A stretch of 64,000 nucleotides of DNA, from contig JARKNX010000177.1 in the NCBI GenBank assembly GCA_029976025.1, forward strand, positions 8,897 through 72,896. Reading direction: 5' to 3'. The notes under the pieces are model-generated. The model was not told the origin of the DNA, ran no database searches, and saw nothing but the letters and a program-made list of their open reading frames with translations. Both the position numbers and the translations under genes were made by a program. Positions 65 through 61,700 of the stretch are shown piece by piece. The DNA comes from Aggregatilineales bacterium (GTDB lineage: Bacteria; Chloroflexota; Anaerolineae; Aggregatilineales; Ch27). Position 1 is the first letter of the stretch; every line of letters starts with the position of its first letter.

Positions 65-1381
65 ATGGCCCTGGGCAGTCTGATACATCCGATCGCCGGC
101 GGACTGGCGACAATCTTCATCGGGGTGGCGCTGGCCGTAGCGCTGTGGCTGGGAGTCCTGGTCACCGGCCTGCTGATGATCCTGATCGGCCTCTTCAACC
201 GCGCCCAGGCCGCCCGCTACCGGATGTCCTTCCGCTGCCCGAACTGCCACGAGCAGATGAGCGTGCCCGTCATCATCTGCCCGGTGTGCGGGGAGCGCCA
301 CACCCGCCTGTGGCCGAGCGTCTACGGCGTATTCCGCCATACCTGCGTCTGCGGGGAGCGCCTGCCCACGCTGGATCGCTTCGGGCGGCGGGAGCTGGTG
401 CAGCGCTGCCCATCCTGCGACCACGTCCTCAACAAGGCTATTGGCCGGGCCACCAACATTCATATCCCTATCGTCGGCGGCCCGTCGGCGGGCAAGACGC
501 ATTACCTGACGGCCTGTGTCCGCGAGCTGATGCAGTCTTACGGCCCGGCGCACCGGCTGTCCGTCACCATGCCCGACGAAGCCGACTACCGCGCCTACCA
601 GACCAGCCTGGCGCTGCTCAACCAGGGCCAGCAGTTGGGCAAGACCACAGTCGAACAGGGCGGCCACACCCGCGCCTATAACCTGCAAATTCGCCGCCGC
701 CGGCAGCGCATCCCCACCCTGCTCTACATCTATGATGGCGCGGGTGAGTATTACACCGACCAGGACAGCGCCGCGCAGCAGGTTTACTACCGCTATGTCA
801 CCGGCTTCATCATGATCGTAGATCCCTTCACCATCGAGGGCGTGCACCGGCAGTACGCCGATCGCCTGCAGGCCGCCGGCACAACTCTGGCTGTGAACGC
901 TCAGGAGCGGCTTTCGGGCATCTATGAGCGGATGCTGGAAACGCTGGAGATTCATTACGACTTGCAGCCGGGAGTGCGCTTCCCCCACCCGATCGCCGTC
1001 GTGCTGACCAAGCTGGATGCCTTCGACTTACAGGAGCGTATCGGCGGACCCGCGGCCCGGCGGGAGATGGCCCGCAACCCCGACCTGCACACCGAGGAGC
1101 AGGCGATTCACGCGCTGGTGCAGCGCTTCCTGATCCGGAATGGCGAGGGTAACCTGGTGCGGAATCTGTATGCGCAGTTCGAAGCCGTGCGCTTCTTCGC
1201 CTGCTCCTCGACCGGCCGCATCATCCGGCCCGAGGATCACCGGCCGCTGACGCCGGAGCGCGTGCTGGACCCGCTGCTGTGGCTGCTGGCTCAGACGAAT
1301 GTCCTGCCGGCGGCGAAGCCAACCGCCGCCGGGAACGGCAGTTCCGACAGCCCGCCTGAAGGCCAGATGAGCGCGCCATAG
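65..1381 (+). CDS. Membrane-anchored double zinc-ribbon / TRAFAC-class P-loop GTPase (possibly 5'-partial)
   Basis: 438-aa ORF. N-terminal hydrophobic hairpin (IFIGVALAVALWLGVLVTGLLMILIGL). Cys pairs CPNC..CPVC and CVC..CPSC. Then Walker A GGPSAGKT, G3 YIYDGAGE, G4-like LTKLD and G5-like ACSS. The same frame stays open and GC3-rich back to nt 2, so the real start may lie upstream of the window. Confidence 0.7.
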   Translation: MALGSLIHPIAGGLATIFIGVALAVALWLGVLVTGLLMILIGLFNRAQAARYRMSFRCPNCHEQMSVPVIICPVCGERHTRLWPSVYGVFRHTCVCGERLPTLDRFGRRELVQRCPSCDHVLNKAIGRATNIHIPIVGGPSAGKTHYLTACVRELMQSYGPAHRLSVTMPDEADYRAYQTSLALLNQGQQLGKTTVEQGGHTRAYNLQIRRRRQRIPTLLYIYDGAGEYYTDQDSAAQQVYYRYVTGFIMIVDPFTIEGVHRQYADRLQAAGTTLAVNAQERLSGIYERMLETLEIHYDLQPGVRFPHPIAVVLTKLDAFDLQERIGGPAARREMARNPDLHTEEQAIHALVQRFLIRNGEGNLVRNLYAQFEAVRFFACSSTGRIIRPEDHRPLTPERVLDPLLWLLAQTNVLPAAKPTAAGNGSSDSPPEGQMSAP

Positions 1382-7231: not shown

Positions 7232-7498
7232 TTCGCGCTCCTTGTCTTGCACCAGAATCGGATAAGGTCCGCCCGGTGGGTGCGGTCACCGATCTCTTGA
7301 TCGGAGAGGATCAGCCATGTCCCACTTTATTATACGATGCCCCCGGGGAAAACCGCCGAAAACCATACCCTATTTGCTCCGGCCCTGCTACCTCGCTTAT
7401 ACTGGAAACGGCTCGTACAGGGTTCTCATAGGGACAGCGTTACAGGGATCACGATACCCTGCCGCCATCGAGACCGACGCCCTGTAGAAAGGTGTACC

Positions 7499-10120
7499 AT
7501 GGCCGGGCATATCTTCATCAGTTACTCAAGAAGGGATATCGATTTTGCCTCCAGACTGGCGGAAGATCTGAAGGATCGGGGCTTCAAAATCTGGATTGAC
7601 CGCGAGATCGAAGGCGGCGAACGCTGGCGCGCTTCTATCGGGAAGGCCCTGCGAGAAGCTAACGAAGCGATAATCGTCGTGTCGCCGCACTCCATGGCAT
7701 CGCGCTGGGTGATGTACGAAGGGTCGGTCGCCAGCGGCTTCGAGAAGCCGATCTATCCGGTGATGCTGGAGCCAGTCAGCGAGCTGCCTGTCTGGATGGA
7801 AGAAGTGCAGTATATCGACTTCCACCAGAAGCCTTACGAAACCGCCTTTCAGGAACTCGTAGATGCGCTGACGCCGCCCAACGTGTTTCAGGACCTGCTC
7901 GATCAACAGGTGCTGGCCTACCGGCAAACCGGCGAGCTGCTGGGGGAAGCCGTGCTGCGGTTGATCGACGAAAAGCGCGATCATCTGACTCTGACCGAAG
8001 AGGCCGAAGACCTGATCCAGCGGAGCAAGCAGGCGCTGGAATATCGCCGCCGCCTGGTTCGGGCCAGCGCCGGCGCGGCTATCCTGTTGAGCATCGTTGC
8101 CGTGATCGCCGGCATCCTCGCCCTGCGAGCCGGCAGCGAAGTGACCGCCGCCAGCGCCAGCCTGAGCACCGCCCAGGCCGATATGCTCCTGGCCAACAAT
8201 GACCTGGCCACCGCCCGGCTCGCCGTCACCGCCGCCGTCGGCGAACAAAGCACCGCCCAGGCCGAGATCGATATCGCCGCCACCCGGCAGGTTCAGGCCC
8301 AGCAGCAGCTTGCCACGGCCACTTCCGCCGTCGGTCAGGCCCAGGCGCGGATCGCGTTGGCCGAAGCACAGCTCGTGCGCCTGTTCGAGTCGACCGGCAC
8401 TGTGCCGGTCGGCCGCCGACCGCGCAGCATGATCTGGACCGGCGAGCGCCTCTGGGTAGCCAGCGAAGACAGCACCGTGATGCGCATCAACCCTGAGACA
8501 GGCCGCGTGGAGCAAACTGTCGCCCTGGATGCGCCGCCCACCACGCTGACCTGGGATGGGAGCAACCTGTGGGTCGCCTATCAGGACCGGCATCAGGTCC
8601 AGCGCATCGATCCGCAAACAGGGTCAGTCCAGCCGCCGCTCACTGTCGGCAACAATCCTTCCGCGCTGGTCTGGGCCGGGGACGGGCTGTGGGTCGCCAG
8701 CCGGCGCGATAACACCATTCAACGCCTGACCTCAACCGACGGCAATACGTGGACGGCGGGCGAGCCGATCGCCGTCGGGGTTGACCCGCGCGCGCTGCTG
8801 GCCGATGACCAGGGGCGGCTGTGGGTGGCCAACCGGGGCGATAACACCGTACAGGGTTTTGATAGCGCCAGCGGAGAGCTGCTGATAACCCTGTCCACCG
8901 GCCGCGGGCCGATGGCGCTGGCCTGGGACGGCCAGGCGCTCTGGGTCGCCAACCGGACGGAAAATACCGTCCAGCAGCTTGACCCGACCAGCGGCCGCGT
9001 CCTGACGACCGTGCCGGTGGATAAGGTTCCCGTCGCTCTGTTGTGGGACGGAGCCAGCCTGTGGATCGCCAACGACGGGCAGGACACTCTGATGCAGGTT
9101 GATCCGGGCAGCGGCAGAGTGCTCGTCCAGTTGGCGACCGGGCGCGATCCGCTGGCTATGGCCTGGGACGGCAGGCGGCTGTGGGCCATCAACAGTCGCG
9201 AAGATGCCATCAAGCGCATTGATGTCGATCAGGCCGCCATCCTGAGGACAATCTCCCTGCCGGACACGCCGCTGACTATGGTAGCGGTAGGCAGCAGCGG
9301 GCGGCTTTCTGTCGCCAGCGCCAGCGCCAACATCGTGCGCCACATCAATACCGCCGACCCCGAGCGCATGTCCTACACCGAATTGAATGACCGGCCAACC
9401 GACCTGGCCTGGACCAGCGGCAGCACAATCTGGATAGGCCGGCAGAACAACGCCCTGACCCCGACCAATGCTGTTGCGGGGGGCGTTCTGGGCAGCTCAA
9501 TCTCGCTCAGCCACACGCCGGCCGCGCTGGCCTATGACGGCAGCCATATGTGGGTCAGCAGTGAAGCTGAAAATCTGGTGTTCGAGGTTGATCTGCAGAC
9601 GGGCGCCCAGATTGGACGGCCCATTGTCGTGGGAAACGCGCCGGTGGACGTGCTGTGGGACGGCGAAAGGCTGTGGGTCGCCAACAGCGGCGACGACAGC
9701 GTGATGCGCGTCAACACCAATATCGGCCTGGTCTGGTCGCCGGTTCAGGTTGGCCACAACCCTCGCGCGCTGGCCTGGGATGGCGCTACGCTGTGGGTCG
9801 CCAACCGCGACAGCAACAACATTATGCAGATCAGCCCCGGGGGCACGGTGCTGGCCACCGTGACAGGCGTGGGCGAGCAGCCCTCAGCGCTGGCCTGGGA
9901 CGGGCACAGTCTGTGGGTCGCCAGCACCGGCAGCAACACCGTGCAGCAGATCGATCCGGTGACGGCCACTGTGCAGGCCACCGTGCCCGTCAATGAGCGC
10001 CCGATCGCCCTGAGCTGGGACGGCTCCAGTCTGTGGGTTGCCACTGAGCTGAACAGCCTGCAGGAGATCAATGCCCGCAGCCTGAATCTGCTGATGGACG
10101 CACGCCGGGCGATCAGATAG
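7499..10120 (+). CDS. TIR-domain / single-TM / coiled-coil / 14-blade beta-propeller receptor-like protein
   Basis: Start at MAGHIFISYSRRDIDFASRLAEDLKDRGFKIWID. TIR_2-like pattern includes the conserved Glu in SRWVMYEG (GAA at 7718-7720). TM helix AGAAILLSIVAVIAGILAL (8069-8125). An Ala/Gln-rich heptad region follows. From ~8396 there are 14 repeats of ~42 aa, most ending in (L/I)WVA(N/S/Y/T), a few degenerate. Confidence 0.85.
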   Translation: MAGHIFISYSRRDIDFASRLAEDLKDRGFKIWIDREIEGGERWRASIGKALREANEAIIVVSPHSMASRWVMYEGSVASGFEKPIYPVMLEPVSELPVWMEEVQYIDFHQKPYETAFQELVDALTPPNVFQDLLDQQVLAYRQTGELLGEAVLRLIDEKRDHLTLTEEAEDLIQRSKQALEYRRRLVRASAGAAILLSIVAVIAGILALRAGSEVTAASASLSTAQADMLLANNDLATARLAVTAAVGEQSTAQAEIDIAATRQVQAQQQLATATSAVGQAQARIALAEAQLVRLFESTGTVPVGRRPRSMIWTGERLWVASEDSTVMRINPETGRVEQTVALDAPPTTLTWDGSNLWVAYQDRHQVQRIDPQTGSVQPPLTVGNNPSALVWAGDGLWVASRRDNTIQRLTSTDGNTWTAGEPIAVGVDPRALLADDQGRLWVANRGDNTVQGFDSASGELLITLSTGRGPMALAWDGQALWVANRTENTVQQLDPTSGRVLTTVPVDKVPVALLWDGASLWIANDGQDTLMQVDPGSGRVLVQLATGRDPLAMAWDGRRLWAINSREDAIKRIDVDQAAILRTISLPDTPLTMVAVGSSGRLSVASASANIVRHINTADPERMSYTELNDRPTDLAWTSGSTIWIGRQNNALTPTNAVAGGVLGSSISLSHTPAALAYDGSHMWVSSEAENLVFEVDLQTGAQIGRPIVVGNAPVDVLWDGERLWVANSGDDSVMRVNTNIGLVWSPVQVGHNPRALAWDGATLWVANRDSNNIMQISPGGTVLATVTGVGEQPSALAWDGHSLWVASTGSNTVQQIDPVTATVQATVPVNERPIALSWDGSSLWVATELNSLQEINARSLNLLMDARRAIR

Positions 10121-10153
10121 GGAGCAGCGCGCCTGATCCAGCCTGAAAGCAGC

Positions 10154-10178
10154 GGCCCGACCGGTGCCTGGTCGGGCC
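10154..10178 (+). terminator. Hairpin terminator after the TIR gene
   Basis: GGCCCGACC-ggtgcct-GGTCGGGCC (9-bp GC-rich stem), 34 nt after the stop, followed by GTCTTGTG. It abuts the 3' end of the convergent tRNA. Confidence 0.5.
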
Positions 10179-10184
10179 GTCTTG

Positions 10185-10256
10185 TGACTCCGGGAGGACT
10201 CGAACCTCCAACCAATTGATTAAGAGTCAACTGCTCTGCCATTGAGCTACGGAGCC
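10185..10256 (-). tRNA. tRNA-Lys (anticodon CUU)
   Basis: Reverse complement folds as a cloverleaf: GGCTCCG TA GCTC AATGGCA GAGC A GTTGA CTCTTAA TCAAT TGGTT GGAGG TTCGAGT CCTCC CGGAGTC A. The anticodon loop C-T-CTT-A-A gives CTT. 72 nt; CCA is not encoded. Confidence 0.9.
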
Positions 10257-14262: not shown

Positions 14263-17200
14263 ATGACTTTTGTAATGAATGAAGACCACCAGCCAGAGGA
14301 TGAGCATCTGGATCAGGAGGTGCAGGAAACGCCTGAGCAGGGACCTCCGCCTACCCCGCCGTCAACCCCGGCAGTCCGGGTTGAAGTACAGCCCGCCCAG
14401 CCAGCTTCACAGCAGGGAATGCGCCCGGTCCCGCCCCCTCAGGGGCGCAAGCAAGCCGCTAAAAAGCGCGGCGGATGCCTGGTTCCAGCGTTGATTATCG
14501 GGCTGATCGTGCTGGTGCTGGTCGGTATCGCTGTCCTGCTGCCCCCATTCTCGCTGCTGGATCGCCTGACCGGCTCGCAATATGTCGCCCTGAATGCCGA
14601 AACTCCCGGCGTCAGCCATCCGGACGGCCTGACGCTGACCATCGACGCCAGCGACCCCGGACAGGATTTTGCGGTATCACTGGATGCGATTGCCCGGGCG
14701 GACTTCGACAGCGGCCAGACTGAGGCTGAATGGGCCTCCGGCGCACGGGCGGCCCTGCCCCCCGCCCTGACTCTGATCAGCCCGCTTTATACGGTCGATT
14801 ACACCGGCTCCGCCCCCGATACGGTGGCCCTGCGCATTGATGCTCCGGCGGGCGCCAGCCCGGACACAATCGATCTCTATGCCTATGTCCCGGGCAAACG
14901 GCAGTGGGAGTTCGTGCCGTCGCAGTTCGCCGAAGGCAATACGGCCATGGTGACCGATCTGGATTACGTGCCCACTACAATCGGCGTGTTCCAGAGCAGC
15001 GCGGCAAGCCCGGCGGTGATCATCCCGCTGGATGTGACCCAGCCCCTGACCCCCGAAGTAGCCCAGCTCGCCAACATGATTCTGCCGGCGGGCTTGCAGC
15101 CGACGGTGCAGGGCACGCTCCAGGGCAGCCTGGCGGCGAACTTCCAGGCCAACGCCGGGTACGGCGTCCTGCTGGATATCCGCAACTACGCCGATCCGAA
15201 TGCGCTGGACACAGATACTATCGAGACAATCCTGGGCAGCGATGGACTGATTGCCGAGCATATCCGCCAGCTTGCGGCCTGCGTGGAAAGTTGCTATCAG
15301 GGCAGCGCAGTGGACGGCATCGCCATTGACTATCAGGGCATCGACCCGGCCTTCCGCGATCGGTTCTCCCTCTTCGTCCGCGAGCTGGCCCGCGCGCTGC
15401 ACGCTAACGGCCGCAGCCTGCTGGTCGTCCTCCCGGCGGCGCAGGAGCAGGCCGTGGGCGAGCCGTGGGCGACCGGCGCTTACGACTGGCGGGCAATCGG
15501 CCGCTACGCCGATTATGTGCAGGTTGTCATGAGCGACAACCCGATGGACTACGTGCCCGGCGGCCTGGTGGAACGGCTGCTGCGCTGGGGCAAGGGCGAG
15601 ATCAGCCGCTACCAGTTACAGATCAGCCTGTCTTCCGCCAGCCACCAGCAGACAGGCGGCGACACCCCCGCCTTCATCCCCATCAACTATCAGGAAGCCG
15701 TCGCCGGCCTGGGCGATGTCCAGGTGACGACTGAGAGCGAGGGGAGCTACTTCCTGCCGGGGACGACGATCGAGGCGGTGCTCAGCGGCACTCCGGCCAG
15801 CGCCGGCTTTGAGCAGGCCGCCCGGACGCCGTACATTGAATACGAAGAGGGCAGCCGTATCTGGCTGACCACGCCGGGCGCCCTTTTGTACCGGATGAGC
15901 AGCGGCAAGCCGTTCAATATCAGCAGCGTCGCCATCCGCGATCTCCTCAGTCCCGAAGCGATGCCTCACGCGCTGCAGGCAATCGCTGATTTCAGCATGA
16001 ACGCCCCGGCTCCGCTGGAGAATGCGCTTGAGCTGGCGCTCAACTGGACGGTTCTGTCATCGTCCGGCGCGCTCATTCAGGAGAATACGACCGGCCTGAA
16101 CGAGCCATTCCAGTGGGAAGCGGTGGAGCAGGACGGCAACTACGCTATCAACGTCAGCATCGCCGGCGGGGATGAACTGGAAAGCGTCCGGCGCGGTCAG
16201 CAGGTGGCCGTCGCCTACCCGACCCCCACGCCCGCGCCAACCGCCACCCCGACCCCCACCCCGACGCCCACGCCGGTCGTGGTGGTGCAGCAGGCGCCAG
16301 TTCAGCAGAACGCCCCGGCCGCAGCGCCAGCCCCGGTCACCGGGACGATCAGCGGCGGATTCGAGACTGGCGGGCATGTGGCTGACTTCAACAGCGCCGT
16401 GCCCTACATGCAGTCGGCCCGGATGCGCTGGGTCAAGGTGCAGGTGCGTTATAACTACGGAGCCGATCCGGGCGGAAACGGCGGCATAATCCAGGCCGCC
16501 CACGCCAACGGCTTCAAGATACTGTTCGGGTCGGTCGGCTACCCCAACGAGCTGGCCGGCATGGATGAGGGGACTTACTTCGCCGACTTCGCCCGCTTCA
16601 ACGCCGGGCTGGCTTCCATGGGCGCGGACGCGATCGAAGTCTGGAACGAGATGAACATCGATCGCGAATGGCCGACAGGCCGGATCGACCCCAATATGTA
16701 CGCCCGCATGCTTCAGGCGTCATACAACGCGATCAAGGGCGCCAATGGCAGCACGCTGGTCATCAGCGGCGCGCTGGCCCCGACCGGCGCGGAAGGCGCC
16801 TTCGGCACGGACCGGGTCTGGAACGATGATCGTTACTATGCGGGCATGGCTGCCGCCGGCGTCGCCAACTACGCCGACTGCATCGGCGCTCACTACAACG
16901 AAGGCATCGTCCCACCAGACCAGGTCGGCGGCGACCCGCGCGGTGGCTACCCGACTTACTTCCTGACGTCAATGACCAACCGCGCCTGGTCGCCTTTCGG
17001 CGGCTCGCGCCAGGTCTGCTACACCGAGCTGGGCTACCTCTCACCGGAGGGTTACGGCCCGCCGCCGGGCGGCTTCGAATGGGGTGGCAACACCTCCGTC
17101 GCCCAGCAGGCGGCGTGGCTGGCCCAGGCCGCCGTAATCAACAGCAACAGCGGCAAGGTCCGGCTGATGATCATCTGGAACGTTAACTTCACCAACTACG

Positions 17201-17289
17201 CGGGCGATCCGATGGCCGGCTACGCGATTGTGCGCCCCGGCGGCGGTTGCCCCGCCTGTGATACGCTGCGCTCCGTCTCCGGCGGCTGA
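14263..17289 (+). CDS. Membrane-anchored multidomain protein: GH18-like (mutated catalytic motif) + PT linker + clan GH-A hydrolase, paralog B
   Basis: 1008 aa. Pro-rich N-terminus, then TM LVPALIIGLIVLVLVGIAVLL. GH18-like block ...VDGIAIDYQGIDPAFRDRFSLFVRELARALHANGRSLLVVLP. Linker PTPTPAPTATPTPTPTPTP. The C-terminal ~330 aa looks roughly two-thirds identical by eye to paralog A (IEVWNEMNIDREWP, CYTELGY, YAIVRPGGGCPAC). Confidence 0.8.
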   Translation: MTFVMNEDHQPEDEHLDQEVQETPEQGPPPTPPSTPAVRVEVQPAQPASQQGMRPVPPPQGRKQAAKKRGGCLVPALIIGLIVLVLVGIAVLLPPFSLLDRLTGSQYVALNAETPGVSHPDGLTLTIDASDPGQDFAVSLDAIARADFDSGQTEAEWASGARAALPPALTLISPLYTVDYTGSAPDTVALRIDAPAGASPDTIDLYAYVPGKRQWEFVPSQFAEGNTAMVTDLDYVPTTIGVFQSSAASPAVIIPLDVTQPLTPEVAQLANMILPAGLQPTVQGTLQGSLAANFQANAGYGVLLDIRNYADPNALDTDTIETILGSDGLIAEHIRQLAACVESCYQGSAVDGIAIDYQGIDPAFRDRFSLFVRELARALHANGRSLLVVLPAAQEQAVGEPWATGAYDWRAIGRYADYVQVVMSDNPMDYVPGGLVERLLRWGKGEISRYQLQISLSSASHQQTGGDTPAFIPINYQEAVAGLGDVQVTTESEGSYFLPGTTIEAVLSGTPASAGFEQAARTPYIEYEEGSRIWLTTPGALLYRMSSGKPFNISSVAIRDLLSPEAMPHALQAIADFSMNAPAPLENALELALNWTVLSSSGALIQENTTGLNEPFQWEAVEQDGNYAINVSIAGGDELESVRRGQQVAVAYPTPTPAPTATPTPTPTPTPVVVVQQAPVQQNAPAAAPAPVTGTISGGFETGGHVADFNSAVPYMQSARMRWVKVQVRYNYGADPGGNGGIIQAAHANGFKILFGSVGYPNELAGMDEGTYFADFARFNAGLASMGADAIEVWNEMNIDREWPTGRIDPNMYARMLQASYNAIKGANGSTLVISGALAPTGAEGAFGTDRVWNDDRYYAGMAAAGVANYADCIGAHYNEGIVPPDQVGGDPRGGYPTYFLTSMTNRAWSPFGGSRQVCYTELGYLSPEGYGPPPGGFEWGGNTSVAQQAAWLAQAAVINSNSGKVRLMIIWNVNFTNYAGDPMAGYAIVRPGGGCPACDTLRSVSGG

Positions 17290-52718: not shown

Positions 52719-55700
52719 TTACTCAGCCTGCATCTGGGCCAGCTCCGCCGGCAGCTCGGTTATCAGAGGGATGACCACATAAAAGGTCGACCCGGCTCCT
52801 TCCTGACTTTCCAGCCAGATGCGGCCATTGTGCATCTGGATCAGCTCCTTGACCAGAGCCAGGCCCAGCCCGGTGCCGGGGGTCTCGATCACCAGGGGGT
52901 CCTCATCATAGCGATAGAAGCGATCGAAAACGCGGCTCTGCTGATCTTCGGGGATGCCGATGCCGGTGTCAGCTACGGAGAACAGAATAGCATCCGCGCC
53001 TTCCATCCGGACAGACAGGGTAATAGTACCATTTTCGGGGGTGTACTGGTAGGCATTATCGACCAGATTGGTCATAACCTGCATCAGTTTGTCCGGGTCC
53101 GCGTAGGTATCGGGGAGGCCCTCATCGATCGCCTCGACCACCGTCATGGCTTTGCGTTCCGTCCCGATACGCCCGCGCAGATTGTCCAGCACCGTGTGCG
53201 CGATCTGGCCGAGGTTGATCTGCTGATAGTGGAGCGTAGAGCTGCCGGAATCGATGCGGGAGATGTTGAGCAGGTCATTGACCAGAATGCTCAGACGATC
53301 GGCGTTGTTCTTGATGACCGTCAGGAAGTCCCGCTGGTGCTCGTTTATTTCACCGACCGCGCCCATGACCAGCAGATCAGCATAGCCCTTGATGCTCGTC
53401 ATTGGCGTCCGCAGCTCGTGCGAGACATTGGAGATGAACTCCGTCTTCATGCGGTCCACTTCGACATCGCGGGTGATATCGCGCACCACCGATACCGTCC
53501 CGAGGAACTGGTCGCCCATATGGACCGGGGCCAGAGTAACCTGAACGACGCGCTCGCCTAACTCCAGCGTCTCCGCCAGGTAATCGCCGGAGCGAATCTG
53601 GCTGGGGTCGTTCATCCAGCGCTGGATGGTATCGGCCCACTGCCGCCCGCCGCCGCCGTAGAGGCCGCGCAGACTGCTGATCGGGCGGCCCAGAATCTCG
53701 TTACGCCGGATGCCCAGCACGCGCTCAGCAGTCCGGTTGAACAGGGTAATTTCGCCTGTCTCATTGGCGAACATCACGCCGTCAGCGACGCCTTCCAGAA
53801 TAGCGTTGCTCTTGGATGCCTCGATCTGCTGCTCGCGGACCATATCACCCAGCCGCTCAGCCTGTTCGCGGATGAAGAGGTACAGTTCCGCGTTATTGAT
53901 GGAGGTCGAAAGCTGGTTGGCGGAGGCCATCGCCAGCCGCAGGTGATCCTCATTGAAGATCCCCGGCTGGCTGTTGTAGAGCATCAGAACGCCAAGCACC
54001 TCGTCGCTGGTTTCCAGCAGCACCGCCAGCGTAGCGCGCGGGATGCGATCGCGGGGCGAGTCCTGCATCCAGCGCGAGTCCGTCTGAACATCATCAACAA
54101 CAATCGACTGTCGATTCTGGATCACCCAGCCGGCCAGCCCTTCATTGAGGCGCTGCCCGCCCTCCGGGCCGGGGCCGGCCACCTGATCGCCCAGTTCAGC
54201 CCGCCTGTACAACTGCTCGGAGTGGTGGTCGATGAGCAGGATCAGCCCCTGCTCCGCGCCGGTCGCCTCCGCCAGCAGGTGCAGCGCGCGGTCCAGCACG
54301 CGGTCCATATCAAGCGTCGCCGACAGTTCTGCCGTGATGGTGTACAGCACGTTGAGCCGGTCGCGCTCCGACCGCACTTCTTCGGTCTGGGCGCGGACAC
54401 GCCGCTCCAGCTCCTGGTTGAAGCGCCTCAGCTCGCTGAAGAGGTTAGCGTTCTGGATAGCGACGGCAAGCTGACTGGCGACGGTGGTCAGGATGCGCTG
54501 GTCGTTAATACCGAAGGAACGCGGGTCATGCTCGTCTCCAATCGCCAGCACTCCGACGGTCTCCAGGCCGACTGACAGCGGCACAGCCACAAAGCTGGCC
54601 AGGTCCGGTATCGTCGTCTCAATCTCGAGGTTGCGGCGCACGCCAGCCAGTTCATCGCCCAGCAGGATCAGTGGCCTGTTGTGGCGGATGATCCACGAGA
54701 ATTCGTCCTGTCCCAGCGGCCGGGTCGGAAGCGCAACATCCTTGCCCTGGTATATCGCAACCGGGAAGCTCAGTTCGTCGTTTTCGCGCTCGTACAGGGC
54801 AAGGTACAGCCATTCGGCATGCGTCAGAGAGGGAATCTGGGTGCGGACGATTGGCAGCAGCTCCCGCATATCGACCGCCGCCGACACCAGGCGGCTCAGA
54901 TCGTTGATCAGGAAGGCGAGCTGAACCTGAGCGGCTGTCTCGGTATTCAGGCGGGCGTTTTCAATGGAGATGGCCGCCTGCCCGGCCAGGGTGCGCGCGA
55001 TACGCTGGGCGCTCAGGCTGAAGCTCCGGTAAGCGCCGCAGGCATCAATCCTGACCAGCCCGATGGCGTTTTCGCGCACAACCAGCGGGATCAGCATGCG
55101 AGCGGTGCTCCCGGCTTCTTCCATCTCTGCCAGCTCATGTGGCTCAATCTCATCCCCGCGCTCGCGGTGCAGGACAATGGCGGTGCGCTCCTGCAGGACT
55201 TCCCGGCGCAGCGGATACTGACGCAGCGCGTAAATTGTCCCCGCCGGGGCGCTCCGATCCGCGTCGATCTGATTGACATCCGCATAAACGCGCAGTTCCT
55301 GCTCAACCTCGTCCCACAGCATAACGGAACAGGCATCGGCGCCGAGCGCCGCCAGCATTTGCTGGGCCACGCTGCTCATAACTGTGTCCAGCTCCAGCGT
55401 CAGCGAGGTGGCCTGTGAAGCCTCAAACAGAGTTTCCAGTTCGCGCGTACGGACGAAAGACTGCTCCAGAAGGTTGGCATTCTGGGCGGCGATGGCGGCC
55501 TGCGAGGCCACTATCTGCGCCAGCTCCACCTGCTCCGGAGTGAAGCGCCGCCGCTCCCCCGCCGCCTCAAACAGGAAGAAGCCGATCACCTGGCCGCCGA
55601 CAACCAGCGGAGTGATCATCAGCGAAGCAATATCGCGCGCGTGCAGGGCGACGCGCATGCTGCGCAGCAGGGGGTCGCCCATCGCGTCTTCCACAACCAG

Positions 55701-58700
55701 CGGCTGCGAAGTTCGCCGGATGTAATCAACCGCCGAGTCCTGATCCAGCACGATGATCTCGGTCGGCGGCGCATCCCCGCGCGGATACTCAACGATGACG
55801 GAGCCGATCGACTGCTCCAGATCGAAGAGCACGGCGCGGGCGCCGGGCAGGTCCAGCGCCTCGGCAGTCTCGCGCAGGGCGACTTCGAAGATATTCTCGA
55901 CATCCAGCGACTGGGCCAGCCGCACCGACACACGGTTCAACAGGCTGAGGCGCTCGGTCTGCTGGGTCAGTTCGTACGTACGGCGGCGCGCGTCGGCGAA
56001 CAGGCGCGCATTTTCCAGCGCCACCGCCGCCTGGTTAGCGAAGGCCAGCGTAAGCTGCACATCGTTGTCGGTGTAATAATTCGGCTCCACCTTATCCAGC
56101 GCCAGCAGGCCGATGATCTCCCCTTTGCTGATCAGCGGCGCGCCGAGCCAGTTCAGCGTAGGACGGTGCTCGCTGGCCGGGAAGCGTTCATCCTGCCGCA
56201 CATCCAGGACGTTGAGAGCCTGCTGACGTTCGGCGATATCGCGGAAGAGGGCGCTGTCCTCAATGGCGACAGTCAGGCCGATCAGCTCAGCGGCAGTGCC
56301 GCCGTATCCACGCGCTGAGGCGATGCGCAGATTCTGATCCTCGCGCAGCCAGAGTGTCACGCCGTCGTACACCACCACTTCGCCAAGCTGGTCCAGCACC
56401 AGGCTGATCACCTGCTCCGGCTCCAGGGTCGCGGTCAGGCGGCTGGAAACATCGGTCAGCGCGGTAAGCTGCTCGGCGCGGGCCGCCAGGTCCGCCTCCA
56501 GCCGGGCGCGCTCCGTGACATCCTCCACCAGCAGCACCACGCCGGTGACCTCACCCTCCTGCTGGAGTGGATACAGATAGAAGTTCTGGACAAAGTGCTG
56601 ATCGGCGGAGGGCTGGCTGACCACGTTGAACAGCACTTCCGGCCGGCCCGTGGCGATCACGTTGCTCAGGCCGCCGGCCAGAATTTCCCGGTATTCCGGG
56701 CGGTACGCAAATAAATGCTGCCCTTCCGCCTCAGAAGTCCATCCGTAATGGAGACGCATGAAGTTGTTAAGAGTCGTCACCTCTCCATCGCGATCCATCA
56801 CCACAATGCCCTGCTGAATGGACTCGACGATGGCGCCGGTGTAGCTCTGCAGATCGCGCATCTCCTGATACAGCCGGGCGTTCTGGATGGCGATGGATGC
56901 CTGGGTGGCGAAGATGGCCGCGCGCTCCATAGCAGTGACGCTGAACGGCTCTTCTGAAGCGATGCGAACTACCACCAGCACGCCCAGGGCCACTCCTTCC
57001 CGCAGGAGCGGGACGCCCATGACCGACCGCGGCGTGAAGAGGCCGGTGAGCGCGCTGTCGAACTCGTTCTGGAGAGACACATCGTTGACATAAAGCGGCT
57101 GCTGATCTGTGAATACGCGGGCCGCCAGCACGCGGCGATCGTCCAGCCCCACCCGCATCCCTACGAAATCCTGGTGGGCCAGCCCCACGCCGGCGATGCC
57201 GAGCAATTCGCCGTGATCGGCCTGGAAGATATAAGCGCCCTCCACCGCCAGAATTTCCAGACTCTCCTGGCAAATACTGGCCAGCGTCGTGGGCAGGTCC
57301 AGCGTGGCGTTGAGGTGGCTGCCCAGGCGTGCCAGCACTGTCGAGAAGCGCTCGCGCTCGGCTGTCTGCTGGTACAGGCGGGCGTTCTCGATGGCGACTG
57401 ATGCCAGGTTCGCCACACGCTGCACCAGGGGCACGCTCCGGGTGTCGAAGCCAAAAGCGTTGTTCAGCTCGCTGCCCATATGCAGCACGCCGACGACGAT
57501 GCCGCCGACCGTCATCGGCACAATCAGGCTGCTGCGATCGCGCTGCGCGTACCACTCCGCCAGGTCCTGATACGGGATATCAGTCTCGTCTTCGCCCAGC
57601 AGGTACACATGGCCGCTGGCCTCGCTGAAGCAGCGCCCCATTGCCGTGTCGGTCACAGGAATCGGGCGACCAGGCCGGACATCCATCCGATCTATATTGA
57701 CGAAGTGCACTTCCAGCGTATCGAAATAATCGTTGACTTCGTCATAAAAGCCCACGGTGAGCCGCGTAAAGGGCAGAAAACGCTGCAACGCCTCAGCCAC
57801 CGCCCGCACGATCCGATTGATGTCCAGCGTGCTGGTGACCGCCTGCATCATCTCATTAAACAGAGCTTCTTGTTCAGCGGAGCGGCTTGTTTCCTGATAC
57901 AGGCGAGTCATCTCGATGGCGTTGGCTGCCTGGTTGGCGAACAGCTCGATCGGGCGGATGCTCGCCTCAGTCGGAGCCTGGCCCCGGGCCGGATCGCGCA
58001 TGCCGATCACGCCGATCAGGCGATTCTCAGCGCCGTAAATCGGCAGGTACACCTGATCATCCGGATGCCAGACGCCGGCCGGCACAGCCGTCCCGGGGTC
58101 CGGCGGCTGCCCGCCGCGCAAATGCTCAATCACCCAGGGAGCGTCATAACGCAGGTAAAACGCCGTCCCCAGCCGCATTTCGTAGAAGGCCGGGTCGGAC
58201 AGGCGCTGGCGCCACTCCGCGCCGGAGCCGAGCAGGCTGTTCAACTCGTCAACTTCCTCGTCGTCATAGCCCGCGTAGATCAGCGTAGTCGGCTCCATGC
58301 GCTCATCGCGCAGCGTGATGAAGACACGGCGCCAGCCAGCGCTCCGGATGCCCTGAGTGACCACCTGCAGACGGGTGGGGACATCCGCCGCCCGCTGAAT
58401 CTCGGTAGAAACAGCGTACAGACGCTCCAGCAGGTCGCGCTCCCGGCGGGCGGCGTCAACCTCGCGCTGCACTGTCTCCAGCAGCCAGAAGTTCTCCACC
58501 GCAATGGCCGCCTGCTGGGCAAAAATCTCCAGCGGCTCGATAACCGAACGCACCGGACGCCGGCCATCCGTCGGGGCGTCCACGCTTATGTAGCCGACCA
58601 TGGTCCCATGTGAGTCGCGCAAGGGGACCATCAGAAGATCGTCCGGCTGCCAGAGGGCCGTCGACTCGGCGTCGGTGACGTACTCCTCGTGGTAAAGCAG

Positions 58701-61700
58701 ATCGCCGTCAGTGAGGAAATGCGCCCATTCCGACGACGCTTCCGTCGGCAGGAAGTAGGACTGGCTGATACGGAATTTCTCCTGCATCAACCCTTCAATC
58801 CGGGAGCGGGGGGTGGTCTTCTGCTTGATCTCGGCGAACGTAGCCAGCGGGATGCCGGCCTGAGCCACCCGGCGGAACGCATCGATCTGCTCATCGAAAA
58901 TGCTGATCAGGACGACGGCGTAACCCGCCGACATCTGAATGGCGTGTGCGACCGCCTCCAGGACGCCCTCCACATCGCGCTCGGAGCGCAGCACCTGGCC
59001 CAGCTCGAAAATCTGGTTGAGCTGCTCCACGCGGCGGCTGAGGAGCAAGTTGCGGCTGATCTGCTCGCGGAAGCTGGCGTAGTTGCCGTAGGCAGTGGCC
59101 GCCTTCAGCGCCAGAGCGCTGACGAACAGCTCCGTCTGGGAGTCAAATACCCGGGCCGCAGTATGCGCCAGATGAATGACGCCGACGGGTTTTTCGTCAT
59201 ACAGAATCGGCACGATCAGGGCTGAGATCGCTGAGGCAGGCTCCGCCTCCCAGGGGCTATCGGCGTAGTCAGCCACCGCGATCACCGATCGGGTGCGCAG
59301 CGCTTCCTCCTCCACCGGCAGGCTGGCCGCCGGCAGGACATCTTCGGCCCCGTAACGCCGCATCTCCTCCGGCTGCGCGACATCGGCCCATTCCTCGCGC
59401 GGGGAAAGCATGAGCAGGGTGCATTCAGCCACCCCGGTGACCTGCATCACTTCGCGCCGGATCACCCGGGTGATGCGGTCCAGCTCCACCGTCAGGGCCA
59501 ACTCGTTGGCGACGCGGTTGATAGCGTCGAGTTCGGCCACCCGCGTCCGGAGGGCGGCATCGTTCATATCACGCAGACGCAACCGTTCGATGGCGGCGCT
59601 GATCTGCAAAGCAATCAGCCGCAGGCCGTCCAGGTCCTGCGGCCGGTAGTCGCCGGGACGATTCGCCACGACTAGCTCGCCCAGATTCTGTCCGCCAGCT
59701 TTCAGCGGGGCGACCGCGAGCCGGGTCAGATGCAGCCGGTCGAGCAGCGGTCGGTACACAGCCGGCAGGTCAGAGTCCTGATTCGGGTTATTGCTCAGCA
59801 GCGACCGCCCGGAGATCAGGGCGCTGCTTTCGCTGCCCGGGGCGTAGACATCGATCGTCAGCTCATCCGCCGGAGATGCCCCGTAGACGTATTCCGGCAG
59901 AATCCGCAGCGCCCCGCTGGATTCATCCAGGAAGTCCACCAGCGCAATCGGGCTGTCGAAGAAATGCGCCGTCTCTCGCAGGGCGCCCTGCAGCATCTCC
60001 GTAAGCGAAGCCGGGCGGCTGAGAATCTCCGAGATGACGCGCAGAGCGCGGGACTCGCTGATTTGCGCCTGAATCTCGCTTTGCAGATGCGTGTTTTCCA
60101 GCGTCAACGCCAGTTGCGCCGCCAGAATACCGGCAATCCGGGCATCATCCCCGGTGAAACCCAGATGCCCGCGCTTGTTGCAGATCAGGATCGCGCCGAT
60201 AGCAGCGCCGCGGACGAGCAAAGGCGCCAGCAAAATCTGCTGGATGCCCACCCAGCTTGTCAGTTGTTCCAGCCCAATTTCAGCGGCAACCGGGTCAGCG
60301 CTCAGATCATTGCACAGCCAGTACTCGCCCTCCCGCCACAGGCGCTCCATCTCGCCCTGGATCGGAATCTGGATGTACTGAAGCAGCTCCGGATCAACGC
60401 CCTGGAAGGTCGGATCGGGGACCAGCGCCCGGCGGGGGGCCTCAAACAACAGCACGCCGGCCATCTCGGCGCCGAAGAGCGCGATCATGCGCGCCGACGA
60501 GTCGGTATACAGCGCAGCGTAGTCGCGCGTCCGCCCCGCCGCCAGCCCGATCTCGTGCAGGGCGCGGACCTCGGCGCTGCGGCGCTGGTCGCGCTCAATC
60601 AGGCTCAGGCTGTCCAGCACGATGGCGGCCTGGGCAGCGAACAGGCTCAGCCGCTGGATCTCCCCGGGACCGATATTTTCACCGTTACGCCGGTTGCAGA
60701 TCTGCACCATGCCGATCCGCCGCCGGCCAATCATCATGGGGACCAGGGCCATCGAGCGCAAGCCAAGCGGCTCGCAATAGTCCCGCAGGCCAATCTCGTC
60801 GATCAGGGTTTCGTCGCGCAGCCGGTTGGCGTACCAGCCCTCATCGCGCAAGAAGACTCGCCGGGCGGCCGAGCCTTCCGGAAGATCAAAGTGATAAGCG
60901 TCCAGGATAGCGTCGGGCATCCCCTGGAAGGGCCGCTGCGGGATCAGGCGTTCTTGCAGCGGGTCATGCAGGAGCAGGCCGCAAACCTGAACGTCAAGGG
61001 CCTGGGCGATATGCTGGACAAACCGCGCGACAAGCTGCCCCTGATCGGTGAGCGTCGCCGAGCCTTCCAGCATAGCCTGCACGCCGGAAAGCTCGTTATA
61101 GCGCAGAACCCGGTCTTCATAAAGCCGGGCTTTATCAATCGCGGCGGCTATCTGGTTAGCGGCGGCTTCCAGGAGCGAAAGGTCCTCATAATTGAACAGC
61201 CGGGGCTGGGCGCCGACAAGTTGTACGACCCCCAGGAACTGCTCCCCGATGAGCAACGGAGCGCCGATGTAGCTGCGACACTCCACGCCCCGCTCCGTCG
61301 ACAAAGCGATGCCGGGGTTGTTCAGGCCATCTTCGACCAGGAGCGGCTGCCGGTAGGTGACTACCCAGCCCGTATATCCCTGCCCGCTGGAGGCTTCTTC
61401 TCCCAGCAGTTCCAGCCCCTGAAGGTGGTCAGGATTCCCCTGCCCGGCCAGGGCTGTGAACGTCCCCGCCTCCGCGCCCCACACCGCAATCTGCCCGGCT
61501 TCGTAGGTGATCGCCCGGCTCAGGCTGGTGAGGATGGCTTCCATTGTCTCAACAAGAGGCTGGTTAGCCGCGATATGCTGGCCGATCTCGCTCAGCGTGA
61601 CCAGAGATCGGGCGGTGCTCGCGCCATATTCTACGCGGTCCGCGGCCATGTCGCGCAGGACGACGACCATATGCCGCGCCGCCCCCTCCCCCGGTAGCTG

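Follow-up and report, generated by a model that had tools for sequence, protein, structure and literature searches.

Oligomerisation turns the TIR domains of SPARTA and SARM1 into active NADases. To our knowledge, the bacterial TIRs investigated to date act as enzymes, and every characterised bacterial TIR system senses infection in the cytoplasm. The protein described here shares with AbTir, the TIR entry 7uxr, SPARTA TIR-APAZ, ThsB and SARM1 a TIR_2-type domain, in which a Trp-x3-Glu motif aligns with the W..YE of AbTir. What sets it apart from AbTir, SPARTA, Thoeris and SARM1 is, first, that neither an APAZ/Ago nor a ThsA, STING, SAVED or ARM/SAM domain or partner accompanies the TIR and, second, a predicted membrane anchor that connects the TIR with a sensor outside the cytoplasm.

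Two groups of membrane receptors share parts of this layout. Sensors of the Mycobacterium tuberculosis PknD type, and the STPK, SARP and cyclase relatives found in this analysis, also have an N-terminal cytoplasmic output domain, one hydrophobic segment and C-terminal YVTN/NHL-type propellers; here, the output is a TIR, and there is a long coiled-coil stalk with two propellers. Animal Toll-like and IL-1 receptors cross the membrane once, between an ectodomain built of repeats and a TIR in the cytoplasm, as is predicted here, and ligand-driven TIR apposition is presumed for both. However, the TIR of Toll-like receptors is C-terminal in a type I protein, whereas here it is N-terminal in a type II protein. 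Their ectodomain is made of LRR or Ig domains rather than of propellers on a coiled-coil stalk, and the present TIR resembles those of bacteria, SARM1 and SPARTA more than those of animal receptors. These three differences argue that the likeness is convergent. Accordingly, the marks of a metazoan Toll-like receptor are lacking: the TIR begins at residue 4, there is neither a signal peptide nor LRRs, and the propeller is C-terminal. The Toll-like logic of the original prediction thus holds for the layout, with repeats outside and TIR inside, but not as a shared architecture, since the chain order is reversed.

The idea of relaying envelope events to a cytoplasmic effector is shared with Zorya (ZorAB), an envelope-sensing anti-phage system in which several genes encode a motor complex and nuclease effectors, although the proteins are unrelated. 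The conflict systems of multicellular bacteria (Kaur et al. 2020, 2021) also occur in filamentous lineages and have TIR among their effector heads. Compared with nSTAND1/effector-NTPase-repeat systems, the present protein has no NTPase switch, and its TIR is joined to the sensor directly through the membrane. The conflict-system papers in the literature searched do not describe such a TM-separated TIR-propeller arrangement, and a bacterial TIR-TM-propeller protein is described nowhere in the full-text literature searched, which is an absence of evidence within that scope.

The gene lies in a window of 64,000 nucleotides (the whole stretch of DNA that was analysed) from a filamentous-type lineage of Chloroflexota. 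Profile searches, hydrophobicity and an AlphaFold2 (AF2) model agree with the domain order that had been proposed from the sequence: TIR, linker, TM helix, stalk and 14 blades. The features are as follows.

7487..7492, + strand: Shine-Dalgarno-like GAAAGG, 6 nt 5' of the ATG at 7499 (sequence inspection; homologs start at the equivalent Met)
7499..10120, + strand: whole gene, encoding TIR, linker, TM helix, stalk, double propeller and tail (873 codons plus stop)
7499..7861, + strand: TIR domain, aa 1-121, predicted cytoplasmic (Pfam TIR_2 match and AF2 alpha/beta fold)
7718..7720, + strand: codon of Glu74, putative catalytic glutamate (W70-x3-E74), within RWVMYEG (homolog and AbTir alignment)
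7862..8062, + strand: helical juxtamembrane linker, aa 122-188, with the basic EYRRRLVR at its end (AF2; 72% identity in the clade)
8063..8125, + strand: predicted single transmembrane helix, aa 189-209 (hydrophobicity, charge bias, conservation)
8132..8395, + strand: Ala/Gln-rich heptad stalk, aa 212-299 (88 aa), predicted extracytoplasmic coiled coil (heptads, AF2)
8396..9238, + strand: blades 1-7, aa 300-580, first YVTN-type propeller, boundaries approximate (profile, AF2, Foldseek, blade alignment)
9239..10072, + strand: blades 8-14, aa 581-858, second propeller (AF2, Foldseek, conservation, blade alignment)
10073..10117, + strand: C-terminal helix LQEINARSLNLLMDARRAIR (AF2 helix 859-872; kept in homologs and in the nSTAND1 relative P0018)
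10152..10180, no strand assigned: GC-rich hairpin of 13 bp, 3' of the stop codon and before the convergent tRNA, whose 3' end faces it
10184..10256, - strand (opposite to the gene): tRNA-Lys (CTT), conserved syntenic neighbour of the TIR gene

The ATG at 7499 is preferred over an in-frame ATG at 7337, because all 14 full-length homologs share the N-terminus MAG/MAR..F.SYS.

We propose, with about an even chance of being right, that the product is a type II single-pass receptor of Chloroflexota (Anaerolineae, near Aggregatilineales) in which extracytoplasmic sensing leads to TIR oligomerisation and NAD+ cleavage. The TIR and the juxtamembrane linker would lie in the cytoplasm, and the stalk, the propellers and a closing C-terminal helix outside the cell. 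The propellers would respond to a ligand, to mechanical change or to a change in the envelope; candidate stimuli are phage particles, neighbouring cells and components of the cell wall or sheath. Sensing would shift the register or the oligomeric state of the coiled coil, and this change would be relayed via the TM helix, which is continuous with the juxtamembrane helix in the AF2 model. The cytoplasmic TIRs would then assemble into an active oligomer able to cleave NAD+, and the affected cell of the filament would stop growing or die. The NADase activity, the ligand-induced clustering and the defence role are what we infer for this protein. Because no effector gene is linked to the locus, we consider NAD+ depletion more likely than a dedicated pathway with a second messenger. 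One point runs against the receptor reading: a constitutive coiled coil would pair the TIRs permanently, so that an extra inhibitory step would be required.

The genes found next to the TIR gene in the window encode an ABC-F protein, an M29 peptidase, tRNA-Lys, a hydrolase and a methyltransferase. As had been noted, the neighbourhood holds no ThsA, SIR2, SLOG, STING, SAVED, CD-NTase or NTPase gene. When neighbours were clustered over 15 homologous loci, the recurrent ones were ABC-F, M29 peptidase, UvrD helicase, a hydrolase and an SH3 protein, that is, housekeeping synteny; a conserved partner or effector gene, for which a survey of homolog neighbourhoods had been suggested, was rejected, since none recurs in these 15 loci. 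In a second clade, the divergent neighbour encodes a CAP+LysM protein, which is probably secreted. Recent transfer or carriage as prophage cargo was also rejected, as the gene agrees with its neighbours in GC and GC3 and has no paralog elsewhere in the window. About nine to ten related Anaerolineae genomes have the gene at the same syntenic position next to tRNA-Lys; the tRNA-Lys noted earlier is indeed present, with the anticodon CTT, and adjoins the gene in the 3 orthologous loci where it was detected. By contrast, two equally close genomes lack the TIR gene in the stretch beside tRNA-Lys that was examined, and have other genes there, among them TPR or WD40 repeat genes and small unknown ORFs. 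Inheritance in place touches the fixed core gene that had been named as a refutation of the hypothesis, while strict fixation is weakened by these two genomes. In terms of mobile defence-island features, composition is native and the gene is syntenic in about nine to ten genomes and lacking beside tRNA-Lys in two; we read it tentatively as a surveillance gene that has become "institutionalised" in a semi-stable slot rather than as a mobile defence cassette. Synteny over about nine to ten genomes together with native composition is unusual for classical defence genes, and this also runs against the receptor reading.

The TIR domain matches Pfam TIR_2 (PF13676) over aa 5-121 with 91.7 bits (cut-off 28, E=6e-26). 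This score above the curated cut-off, together with a flavodoxin-like alpha/beta fold, places it in the TIR superfamily. Glu74, whose conservation the original prediction had pointed out, is invariant in 14/14 homologs, and Trp70 and Glu74 align with the W..YE motif of AbTir (7uwg, 8g83) and of the second TIR entry 7uxr. As judged from these alignments, conservation of Glu74 is a feature necessary for NAD+-cleaving TIRs but insufficient alone. The best Foldseek matches of the AF2 TIR are SPARTA TIR-APAZ (rmsd 2.1-2.7 Å) and the SARM1 TIR, and the best PADLOC TIR matches are short-pAgo TIR models. Taken by sequence and predicted fold, an enzymatic type of TIR is supported, and the domain is probably NAD-cleaving. 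Within the syntenic clade, TIR (73% identity) and linker (72%) are the most conserved parts, the propellers being at about 50%.

None of the known TIR defence systems compared here fits. The ThsB_TIR model of Thoeris reaches 13.1 bits, below its cut-off of 21.2, and the PADLOC ThsB models match weakly (E=1.9e-5 to 0.04) and over part of the TIR; in addition, no ThsA (SIR2/SLOG or Macro/TM) is adjacent and no effector recurs over the 15 loci. For SPARTA and short pAgo, the Aga_TIR models match the TIR part only (aa 4-132), and there is no Ago gene nearby. Pfam and PADLOC reveal no domain of TIR-STING, TIR-SAVED or CBASS in the protein beyond the TIR itself, and none in the neighbours. Regarding STAND/NLR-like systems (Avs, TIR-NB-ARC, nSTAND1), no P-loop NTPase profile matches the protein. 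Finally, the PADLOC candidate "TIR-TM" (PDLC03016) matches aa 36-75 only, with E=0.009 and 13.9 bits.

Two points tell against catalysis by this TIR: the non-enzymatic TIRs of animal Toll-like receptors also have a Glu at the position equivalent to Glu74, and the TIRs of MyD88 and Hydra TRR-2 are also among the Foldseek fold matches (E around 1e-6). An alternative, unlikely in our view although it ranks first among the alternatives, keeps the same architecture but makes the TIR a non-catalytic scaffold, which on stimulation of the ectodomain would recruit another cytoplasmic TIR or a partner protein encoded elsewhere and convey a developmental or cell-cell signal with no loss of NAD+. Besides the MyD88 and Hydra Toll-related matches, a linker conserved like the TIR suggests a partner or regulatory surface, and the gene is inherited stably in place, as a housekeeping signalling gene would be. 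However, the closest relatives in sequence and fold include the NAD+-cleaving AbTir, SPARTA and SARM1, Glu74 is invariant, no partner gene is linked, and the bacterial TIRs studied are, as far as is known, enzymatic.

Between the TIR and the stalk, the linker (aa 122-188) has no Pfam family match. It is helical in the AF2 model up to EYRRRLVR, as expected, with helices at 129-144, 150-158 and 167-210 in the linker and TM region. The TM helix foreseen at 8069-8125 coincides with aa 191-209, the sole 19-mer stretch with a Kyte-Doolittle value above 1.6 (peak 2.67). Of the 15 residues on either side of the uncharged aa 189-209, 6 are K/R in the N-terminal flank and 1 in the C-terminal flank, in line with the positive-inside rule and with the cytoplasmic N-terminus and outward-facing propellers predicted earlier. 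The TM helix and this charge bias are present in all homologs examined, while AF2 confidence is low across aa 190-222. The sequence thus has the features of a single-pass, N-in/C-out protein with a propeller ectodomain, following PknD-like logic, and P0049, P0041 and P0062 are parallel cases. A cytoplasmic TIR with an extracytoplasmic propeller sensor is the supported, best reading of the predicted topology.

The same region bears on another, improbable scheme, activation by release, in which shedding of the ectodomain and intramembrane cleavage, set off by ligand binding or by damage to the envelope, would free the TIR-linker to self-assemble in the cytoplasm and consume NAD+. A membrane tether has been proposed to restrain the otherwise auto-active TIR NADase of the amoeba protein TirC (PMC13142454). 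Furthermore, the stalk would hold the TIRs paired but apart until release lifts the constraint, and short TIR-linker-only database entries keep the linker with the TIR, though most of them are fragments. Against release, no protease gene is linked and no cleavage motif was found, and the continuous AF2 helix 167-210, running from the linker through the TM segment, suits the conformational coupling of the receptor reading.

The stalk (aa 212-299) contains 28% Ala and 12% Gln and lacks Pro, as does every homolog with a delimited stalk. It follows one heptad register, in which a/d positions are 88% hydrophobic as compared to 62±5% in shuffled sequences (0/2000 shuffles reach 88%), in agreement with the Ala/Gln-rich heptads noticed at first. 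AF2 places stalk helices at 215-245 and 250-299. Beyond the stalk, the TIGR02276 YVTN repeat scores 107 bits (cut-off 27.85), which identifies a YVTN propeller protein; the profile searches that had been recommended therefore returned both TIR_2 and YVTN above their cut-offs. The xW(V/I/A)x motif is found in 13/14 blades and is degenerate in blade 8 (RLSVAS); variation is greatest in blades 8-10, which are degenerate. The 14 blades can be aligned with one another at a mean pairwise identity of 33%, and their period is about 40 aa instead of the 42 aa first given; they are neither recently amplified nor hypervariable, a further point against the receptor reading. The AF2 model (pLDDT 85.6, propellers >90, about 55 strands) points to two 7-bladed propellers, the arrangement that had been expected, and the best Foldseek matches of the propeller region are presumably tandem double 7-bladed propellers.

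The protein is not a singular case: a profile search of representative proteins returned 455 clusters at E<1e-30. This census is an exhaustive search of representatives; a word-indexed search with a TIR-linker-TM profile gave mostly short fragments. Among the top matches, 108 of the 124 that could be tested have a hydrophobic helix C-terminal to the last of 1-7 tandem TIRs, at a median of 87.5 aa past it in these 108 wider relatives. K/R residues are more numerous on the N side of the helix in 91/108, and most wider relatives scanned carry WD40-type propellers past it. By sequence, the protein belongs to a large class, as yet uncharacterised, with the layout TIR (1-7 copies)-linker-TM-beta-propeller, of which it forms the YVTN branch. 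The named relatives come from Anaerolineae, Thioploca, Parabeggiatoa and cyanobacteria, names that point to filamentous, multicellular lineages.

The ectodomain is also found with other outputs. Sister proteins with an nSTAND1 NTPase carry the same TM-stalk-propeller module (27-34% identity), and P0018 also has the "(L/V)QEINARSLNL" tail. This identical module, tail included, weakens the contrast drawn at first with STAND-driven systems. A tie to conflict systems is favoured by this shared module, by the caspase genes that flank one nSTAND1 gene and by the other genes found beside tRNA-Lys in the two genomes lacking the TIR gene. A consistent caspase linkage was rejected since caspase genes occur at 1/3 loci only. 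Related YVTN propellers lie past a hydrophobic segment in proteins with STPK, with SARP/BTAD and SBP_bac_5, or with adenylate cyclase and SBP_bac_5, the latter being an extracytoplasmic solute-binding domain. We regard the ectodomain as a sensor module, because it is also attached to nSTAND1 and because propellers related to it serve kinase, cyclase and SARP outputs.

YVTN repeats (TIGR02276) occur in archaeal surface-layer proteins. This would suit a further reading, which we rank third among the alternatives and consider improbable, in which a surface structural or adhesion protein binds sheath, S-layer, polysaccharide or a neighbouring cell, with the TIR in an anchoring or minor regulatory role and no part in immunity or death. 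The stalk is weakly similar to the PgrA/SEC10 surface-exclusion coiled coil (E=5.6e-4), and the gene is syntenic among housekeeping genes, with the CAP+LysM neighbour in the second clade. However, a structural role accords poorly with TIR and linker being the most conserved parts and the putative catalytic Glu invariant, with the use of the same ectodomain on an nSTAND1 NTPase and of related propellers on kinase, cyclase and SARP outputs, and with the lack of the gene at the locus in two close relatives. Lastly, it is very improbable that the hydrophobic segment is no membrane span and that the protein is a wholly cytoplasmic TIR-coiled-coil-propeller sensor, like the soluble TIR/STAND/WD40 proteins well documented in multicellular bacteria (PMC9218822, PMC7159879): low AF2 confidence over aa 190-222 would fit, but 21 uncharged residues (Kyte-Doolittle 2.67) follow an Arg cluster, the segment keeps a constant spacing from the TIR in 108/124 relatives, and similar segments precede the propellers of kinase, SARP and cyclase proteins, two of them with SBP_bac_5.

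Extending the receptor reading to the class, we suggest tentatively, and as doubtful on present evidence, that this protein and several hundred relatives may be true transmembrane TIR receptors, in which outside events would directly switch on a TIR NADase and cause sacrificial arrest or death of single cells in filaments. Candidate triggers are phage adsorption, contact with foreign cells and damage to the filament envelope. If so, the linkage of a TIR enzyme across the membrane to a propeller on the outside would add cell-surface surveillance to NAD+-based immunity or programmed cell death, and the logic of repeats outside and TIR inside would have arisen independently in bacteria, in convergence with Toll-like receptor signalling. 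The nSTAND1-TM-propeller sisters would then be the counterpart of a membrane-spanning NLR. In filamentous lineages, the sacrifice of one cell would protect the filament. The TIR(n)-TM-propeller class is large and essentially unannotated.

At the 3' end of the gene, the terminator given in the original prediction has to be corrected. The T tract is weak and an intrinsic terminator scan called no terminator 3' of the TIR gene, hairpin 10152-10180 included, but the 13-bp hairpin itself is present, with a folding energy of -32 kcal/mol (z=-2.1), and is possibly a two-way terminator.

The TIR gene encodes an 873-aa product in which a TIR domain, a linker, a TM helix, a stalk, two YVTN propellers and a tail follow one another. 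Domain identities, TM helix, heptads, blades, conserved Glu and gene context were established by computation. The gene and its neighbours are arranged in the window as follows.

65-1381, plus strand: DO-GTPase2 (Double-GTPase 2) protein, encoded some 6 kb before the TIR gene; on the same side, two GNATs, an ABC-F and an M29 peptidase
7499-10120, plus strand: TIR gene, delimited by homolog starts, an upstream GAAAGG and the ORF to the stop codon at 10118-10120
10184-10256, minus strand: tRNA-Lys (CTT); on this other side also an alpha/beta hydrolase, a methyltransferase and an SH3_3 protein
14263-17289, plus strand: 1008-aa ORF with no Pfam match

The ORF list gives an upstream in-frame ATG (7337) as the start; the Met equivalent to 7499 (MAGHIFISYS...) is the first residue in all full-length homologs, and GAAAGG is found 6 nt 5' of this ATG. 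The tRNA-Lys is adjacent, as originally predicted, and lies on the strand opposite to the TIR gene. What was first described as the gene's own terminator is a 13-bp GC hairpin that has a weak T tract, and the terminator scan made no call.

The YVTN repeat match reaches 107 bits (NCBIfam cut-off, 27.85). All fourteen expected blades can be aligned, with a mean identity of 33% and a period of about 40 aa instead of the 42 aa first proposed; the xW(V/I/A)x motif is present in 13 of them, the remaining one being degenerate. The stalk (aa 212-299) indeed consists of Ala/Gln-rich heptads (28% Ala, 12% Gln, no Pro), with 88% hydrophobic a/d positions in a single register versus 62±5% in shuffled sequences, none of 2000 shuffles reaching 88%. 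This coiled coil is probably dimeric or trimeric. An AlphaFold2 model of the full-length protein, built with 14 homologs (pLDDT 85.6, repeats above 90), folds the N-terminal part as a TIR, joins linker and TM segment in one helix (167-210), forms the stalk from two helices and ends, after about 55 strands, in a C-terminal helix. Its best Foldseek matches include 2ymu, Utp proteins, Gemin5 and Apaf-1, which we take to be tandem double 7-bladed propellers. Both strand number and matches point to the two 7-bladed propellers of the original prediction.

The N-terminal domain matches TIR_2 over aa 5-121 (E=6e-26, 91.7 bits versus a Pfam cut-off of 28), and PADLOC matches are confined to this part of the protein; the HMM search suggested at the outset thus found both TIR_2 and the YVTN repeat above cut-off. 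Codon 7718-7720 encodes the anticipated Glu (Glu74, within RWVMYEG), which does not vary across the family (14/14 members). Among TIRs of solved structure, the closest in sequence are 7uxr, PdTIR (3h16) and AbTir (7uwg, 8g83). The W..YE motif lines up with Trp70 and Glu74, and its Glu acts as the catalytic residue in AbTir. Fold comparison relied on a second model, covering aa 1-212 (pLDDT 85.7). The closest folds are those of SPARTA TIR-APAZ (rmsd 2.1-2.7 Å) and SARM1 TIR, which turn into NADases upon oligomerisation; next, with similar scores, come MyD88 and a Toll-related TIR of Hydra. Given the AbTir alignment, the SPARTA/SARM1 likeness and the invariance of Glu74, the TIR is of the enzymatic type by all tests available, and catalysis is predicted. 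The same Glu is also kept in animal TLR TIRs, and a TIR serving as a scaffold only, with no catalysis, would be compatible with this and with the rank of MyD88; beside the evidence for an enzymatic type, that reading is unlikely, being nonetheless the alternative that fares best.

About 15 full-length homologs (31-54% identity), those with a named source coming from Anaerolineae, Aggregatilineales and 'Ardenticatenia' MAGs, have the whole architecture in common. Identity within the close clade drops sharply past the TM helix, from 73% (TIR), 72% (linker) and 69% (TM) to 47% in the stalk and about 50% in the propellers, with most variation in blades 2-3 and 8-10. Some orthologs are shorter, having a single propeller and half the stalk length: at the same locus in L008 (37-1728), the ortholog has 563 aa, one propeller and a 42-aa stalk, and is separated from the hydrolase gene by an additional 526-aa ORF. 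A collection of 5.8 billion proteins held no match to the window protein above 54% identity; the neighbouring methyltransferase is present there at 100% (86-kb NCBI contig). The first 212 aa are found at 100% on a 4.6-kb metagenome contig, L024 (WBZO01021208.1), which breaks off about 250 nt further on, still within the TIR gene.

We infer ligand sensing, a switching step, catalysis and a biological role as follows. The propellers, on their coiled-coil stalk, would sense something at the cell surface, and the signal would be conveyed across the membrane by the TM helix and onward by the conserved helices of the juxtamembrane part; the cytoplasmic TIRs would thereby be free to assemble and cleave NAD+. 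Activation via proteolytic release of the TIR, as proposed for amoeba TirC (PMC13142454), ranks second among the alternatives and is also unlikely. NAD+ depletion would be the simplest output, since no effector gene is linked: the neighbourhood survey proposed in the original prediction was run, and no effector-like gene recurs among the neighbours of the homologous loci compared.

Much of the window gene order is found around orthologs in L001, L003, L007, L008, L009, L010, L025 and L028, where identity to the window is 48-79% for the neighbours and 43-54% for the TIR protein. A further ortholog, P0005, has the methyltransferase ortholog on the same 44.8-kb contig. GC and GC3 of the TIR gene are like those of its neighbours. 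With this native composition and its in-place inheritance in the subclade, the gene is probably not a mobile cassette. L020 and L021 retain the SH3-methyltransferase-hydrolase-tRNA-Lys order, with methyltransferases as window-like as those of gene-carrying genomes, and show no TIR gene in the sequenced stretch beside tRNA-Lys. The slot holds instead:

L020, 10760-18789: small unknown ORFs across about 7 kb, then a WD40 gene
L021, 10787-12043: gene ending in TPR_12 repeats, cut by the contig end

The WD40 match in L020 lies near the C-terminal end of its gene, also cut by the contig end, and one of the small ORFs is similar to a phage repressor HTH. In two more distant genomes, tRNA and TIR gene are both missing from the slot. 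As judged from gene order, the TIR gene is inherited in place within the subclade and the slot itself is variable. Of the fixed core gene envisaged earlier, syntenic inheritance is thus retained, whereas strict fixation is unlikely in view of the two close genomes. A surface protein of mainly structural role would agree with such inheritance and less readily with the enzymatic features of the TIR; it comes third among the alternatives and is improbable.

Homologs at 32-35% identity are located elsewhere, outside the syntenic slot, and the gene divergent to them in this distant clade often encodes a CAP+LysM protein. In L004, a CAP (SCP/PR-1) + LysM protein (8761-9954, minus strand) is the divergent upstream neighbour of the TIR-TM-YVTN gene, and an ORF of its family also occurs in L030 and L031. 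The DO-GTPase2 gene has a counterpart at the equivalent place in L001, and a same-family ORF is seen again in L025. The 1008-aa ORF is matched in L001 and L020 by a similar-sized gene (1007-1008 aa) at the equivalent place, with a faint Glyco_hydro_18 match as sole record.

The single TM helix predicted at 8069-8125 corresponds to aa 191-209, the sole strongly hydrophobic 19-mer (Kyte-Doolittle 2.67). The uncharged stretch aa 189-209 is preceded by six K/R within 15 residues and followed by one. The TIR begins at residue 4, which leaves no room for a signal peptide. With one such helix and this K/R bias, the predicted topology is N-in, C-out, as first proposed; helix and bias are preserved in every homolog examined. 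Moreover, related YVTN propellers stand behind comparable hydrophobic segments in proteins whose head domains, taken from precomputed Pfam assignments, are a Ser/Thr kinase (P0049), SARP/BTAD (P0041) and an adenylate cyclase (P0062). SBP_bac_5, an extracytoplasmic solute-binding domain, is also present among relatives of the last two groups, and in P0062 itself; no match is listed for the 716-aa P0041. Propellers outside the cell are therefore the most economical reading of these sequences, and a false TM segment is highly improbable.

An exhaustive profile search with TIR, linker and TM as query matched 455 representative clusters at E<1e-30. Among the top 149 matches, 124 have at least 150 residues beyond the last TIR and were testable; 108 of these contain a hydrophobic 19-mer, at a median of 87.5 aa (IQR 83-92) past the last TIR, with K/R excess on its N side in 91/108. 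These 108 carry 1 (n=37), 3 (n=55), 4 (n=2), 5 (n=12) or 7 (n=2) tandem TIRs, and WD40-type propellers were found in about 28-30 of 41 scanned. Sources include Thioploca, Candidatus Parabeggiatoa and a cyanobacterium. P0121, P0134, P0176, P0180 and many more have 3-7 tandem TIRs, a hydrophobic helix about 88 aa on and, often, WD40 propellers. On this sequence basis, a large and so far uncharacterised class emerges, built as TIR(n)-juxtamembrane domain-TM-propeller, in which the window protein represents the YVTN branch. The class is unstudied and open to testing, its functional steps all being predictions.

The TM-stalk-propeller module is also combined with an nSTAND1 NTPase in proteins some 1200 aa long, which look like membrane-spanning STAND proteins:

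L006, 10001-13624: nSTAND1 sister with TM helix, Ala-rich stalk and YVTN propellers; also P0012, P0024 and P0033

The sister P0018 has the '...QEINARSLNL...' tail of the window protein and is flanked by Peptidase_C14 (caspase) genes; two other sister loci have no caspase flank.

The window protein resembles TLRs in signalling logic, PknD-type receptors in topology, and AbTir, SPARTA and SARM1 in TIR type. Unlike Thoeris, it has no ThsA partner, and its ThsB_TIR match is below cut-off; it also lacks the APAZ domain and Ago gene of SPARTA, the STING or SAVED sensor domains of TIR-STING and TIR-SAVED, and the NTPase domain of STAND/NLR proteins. The TLR-style sensor of the original prediction stands in logic but not in architecture, the chain order being reversed relative to animal TLRs and LRRs absent. 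Publications that define nSTAND1 and TIR-NTPase-repeat proteins, in the context of conflict systems in multicellular bacteria, contained no description that we found of a TM-separated TIR-propeller receptor (PMC7159879, PMC9218822).

The window also encodes a giant sensor histidine kinase (52719-62045, minus strand; 3108 aa). It carries 10 or more GAF domains as well as PAS domains, and its C-terminal part is HisKA/HATPase_c.
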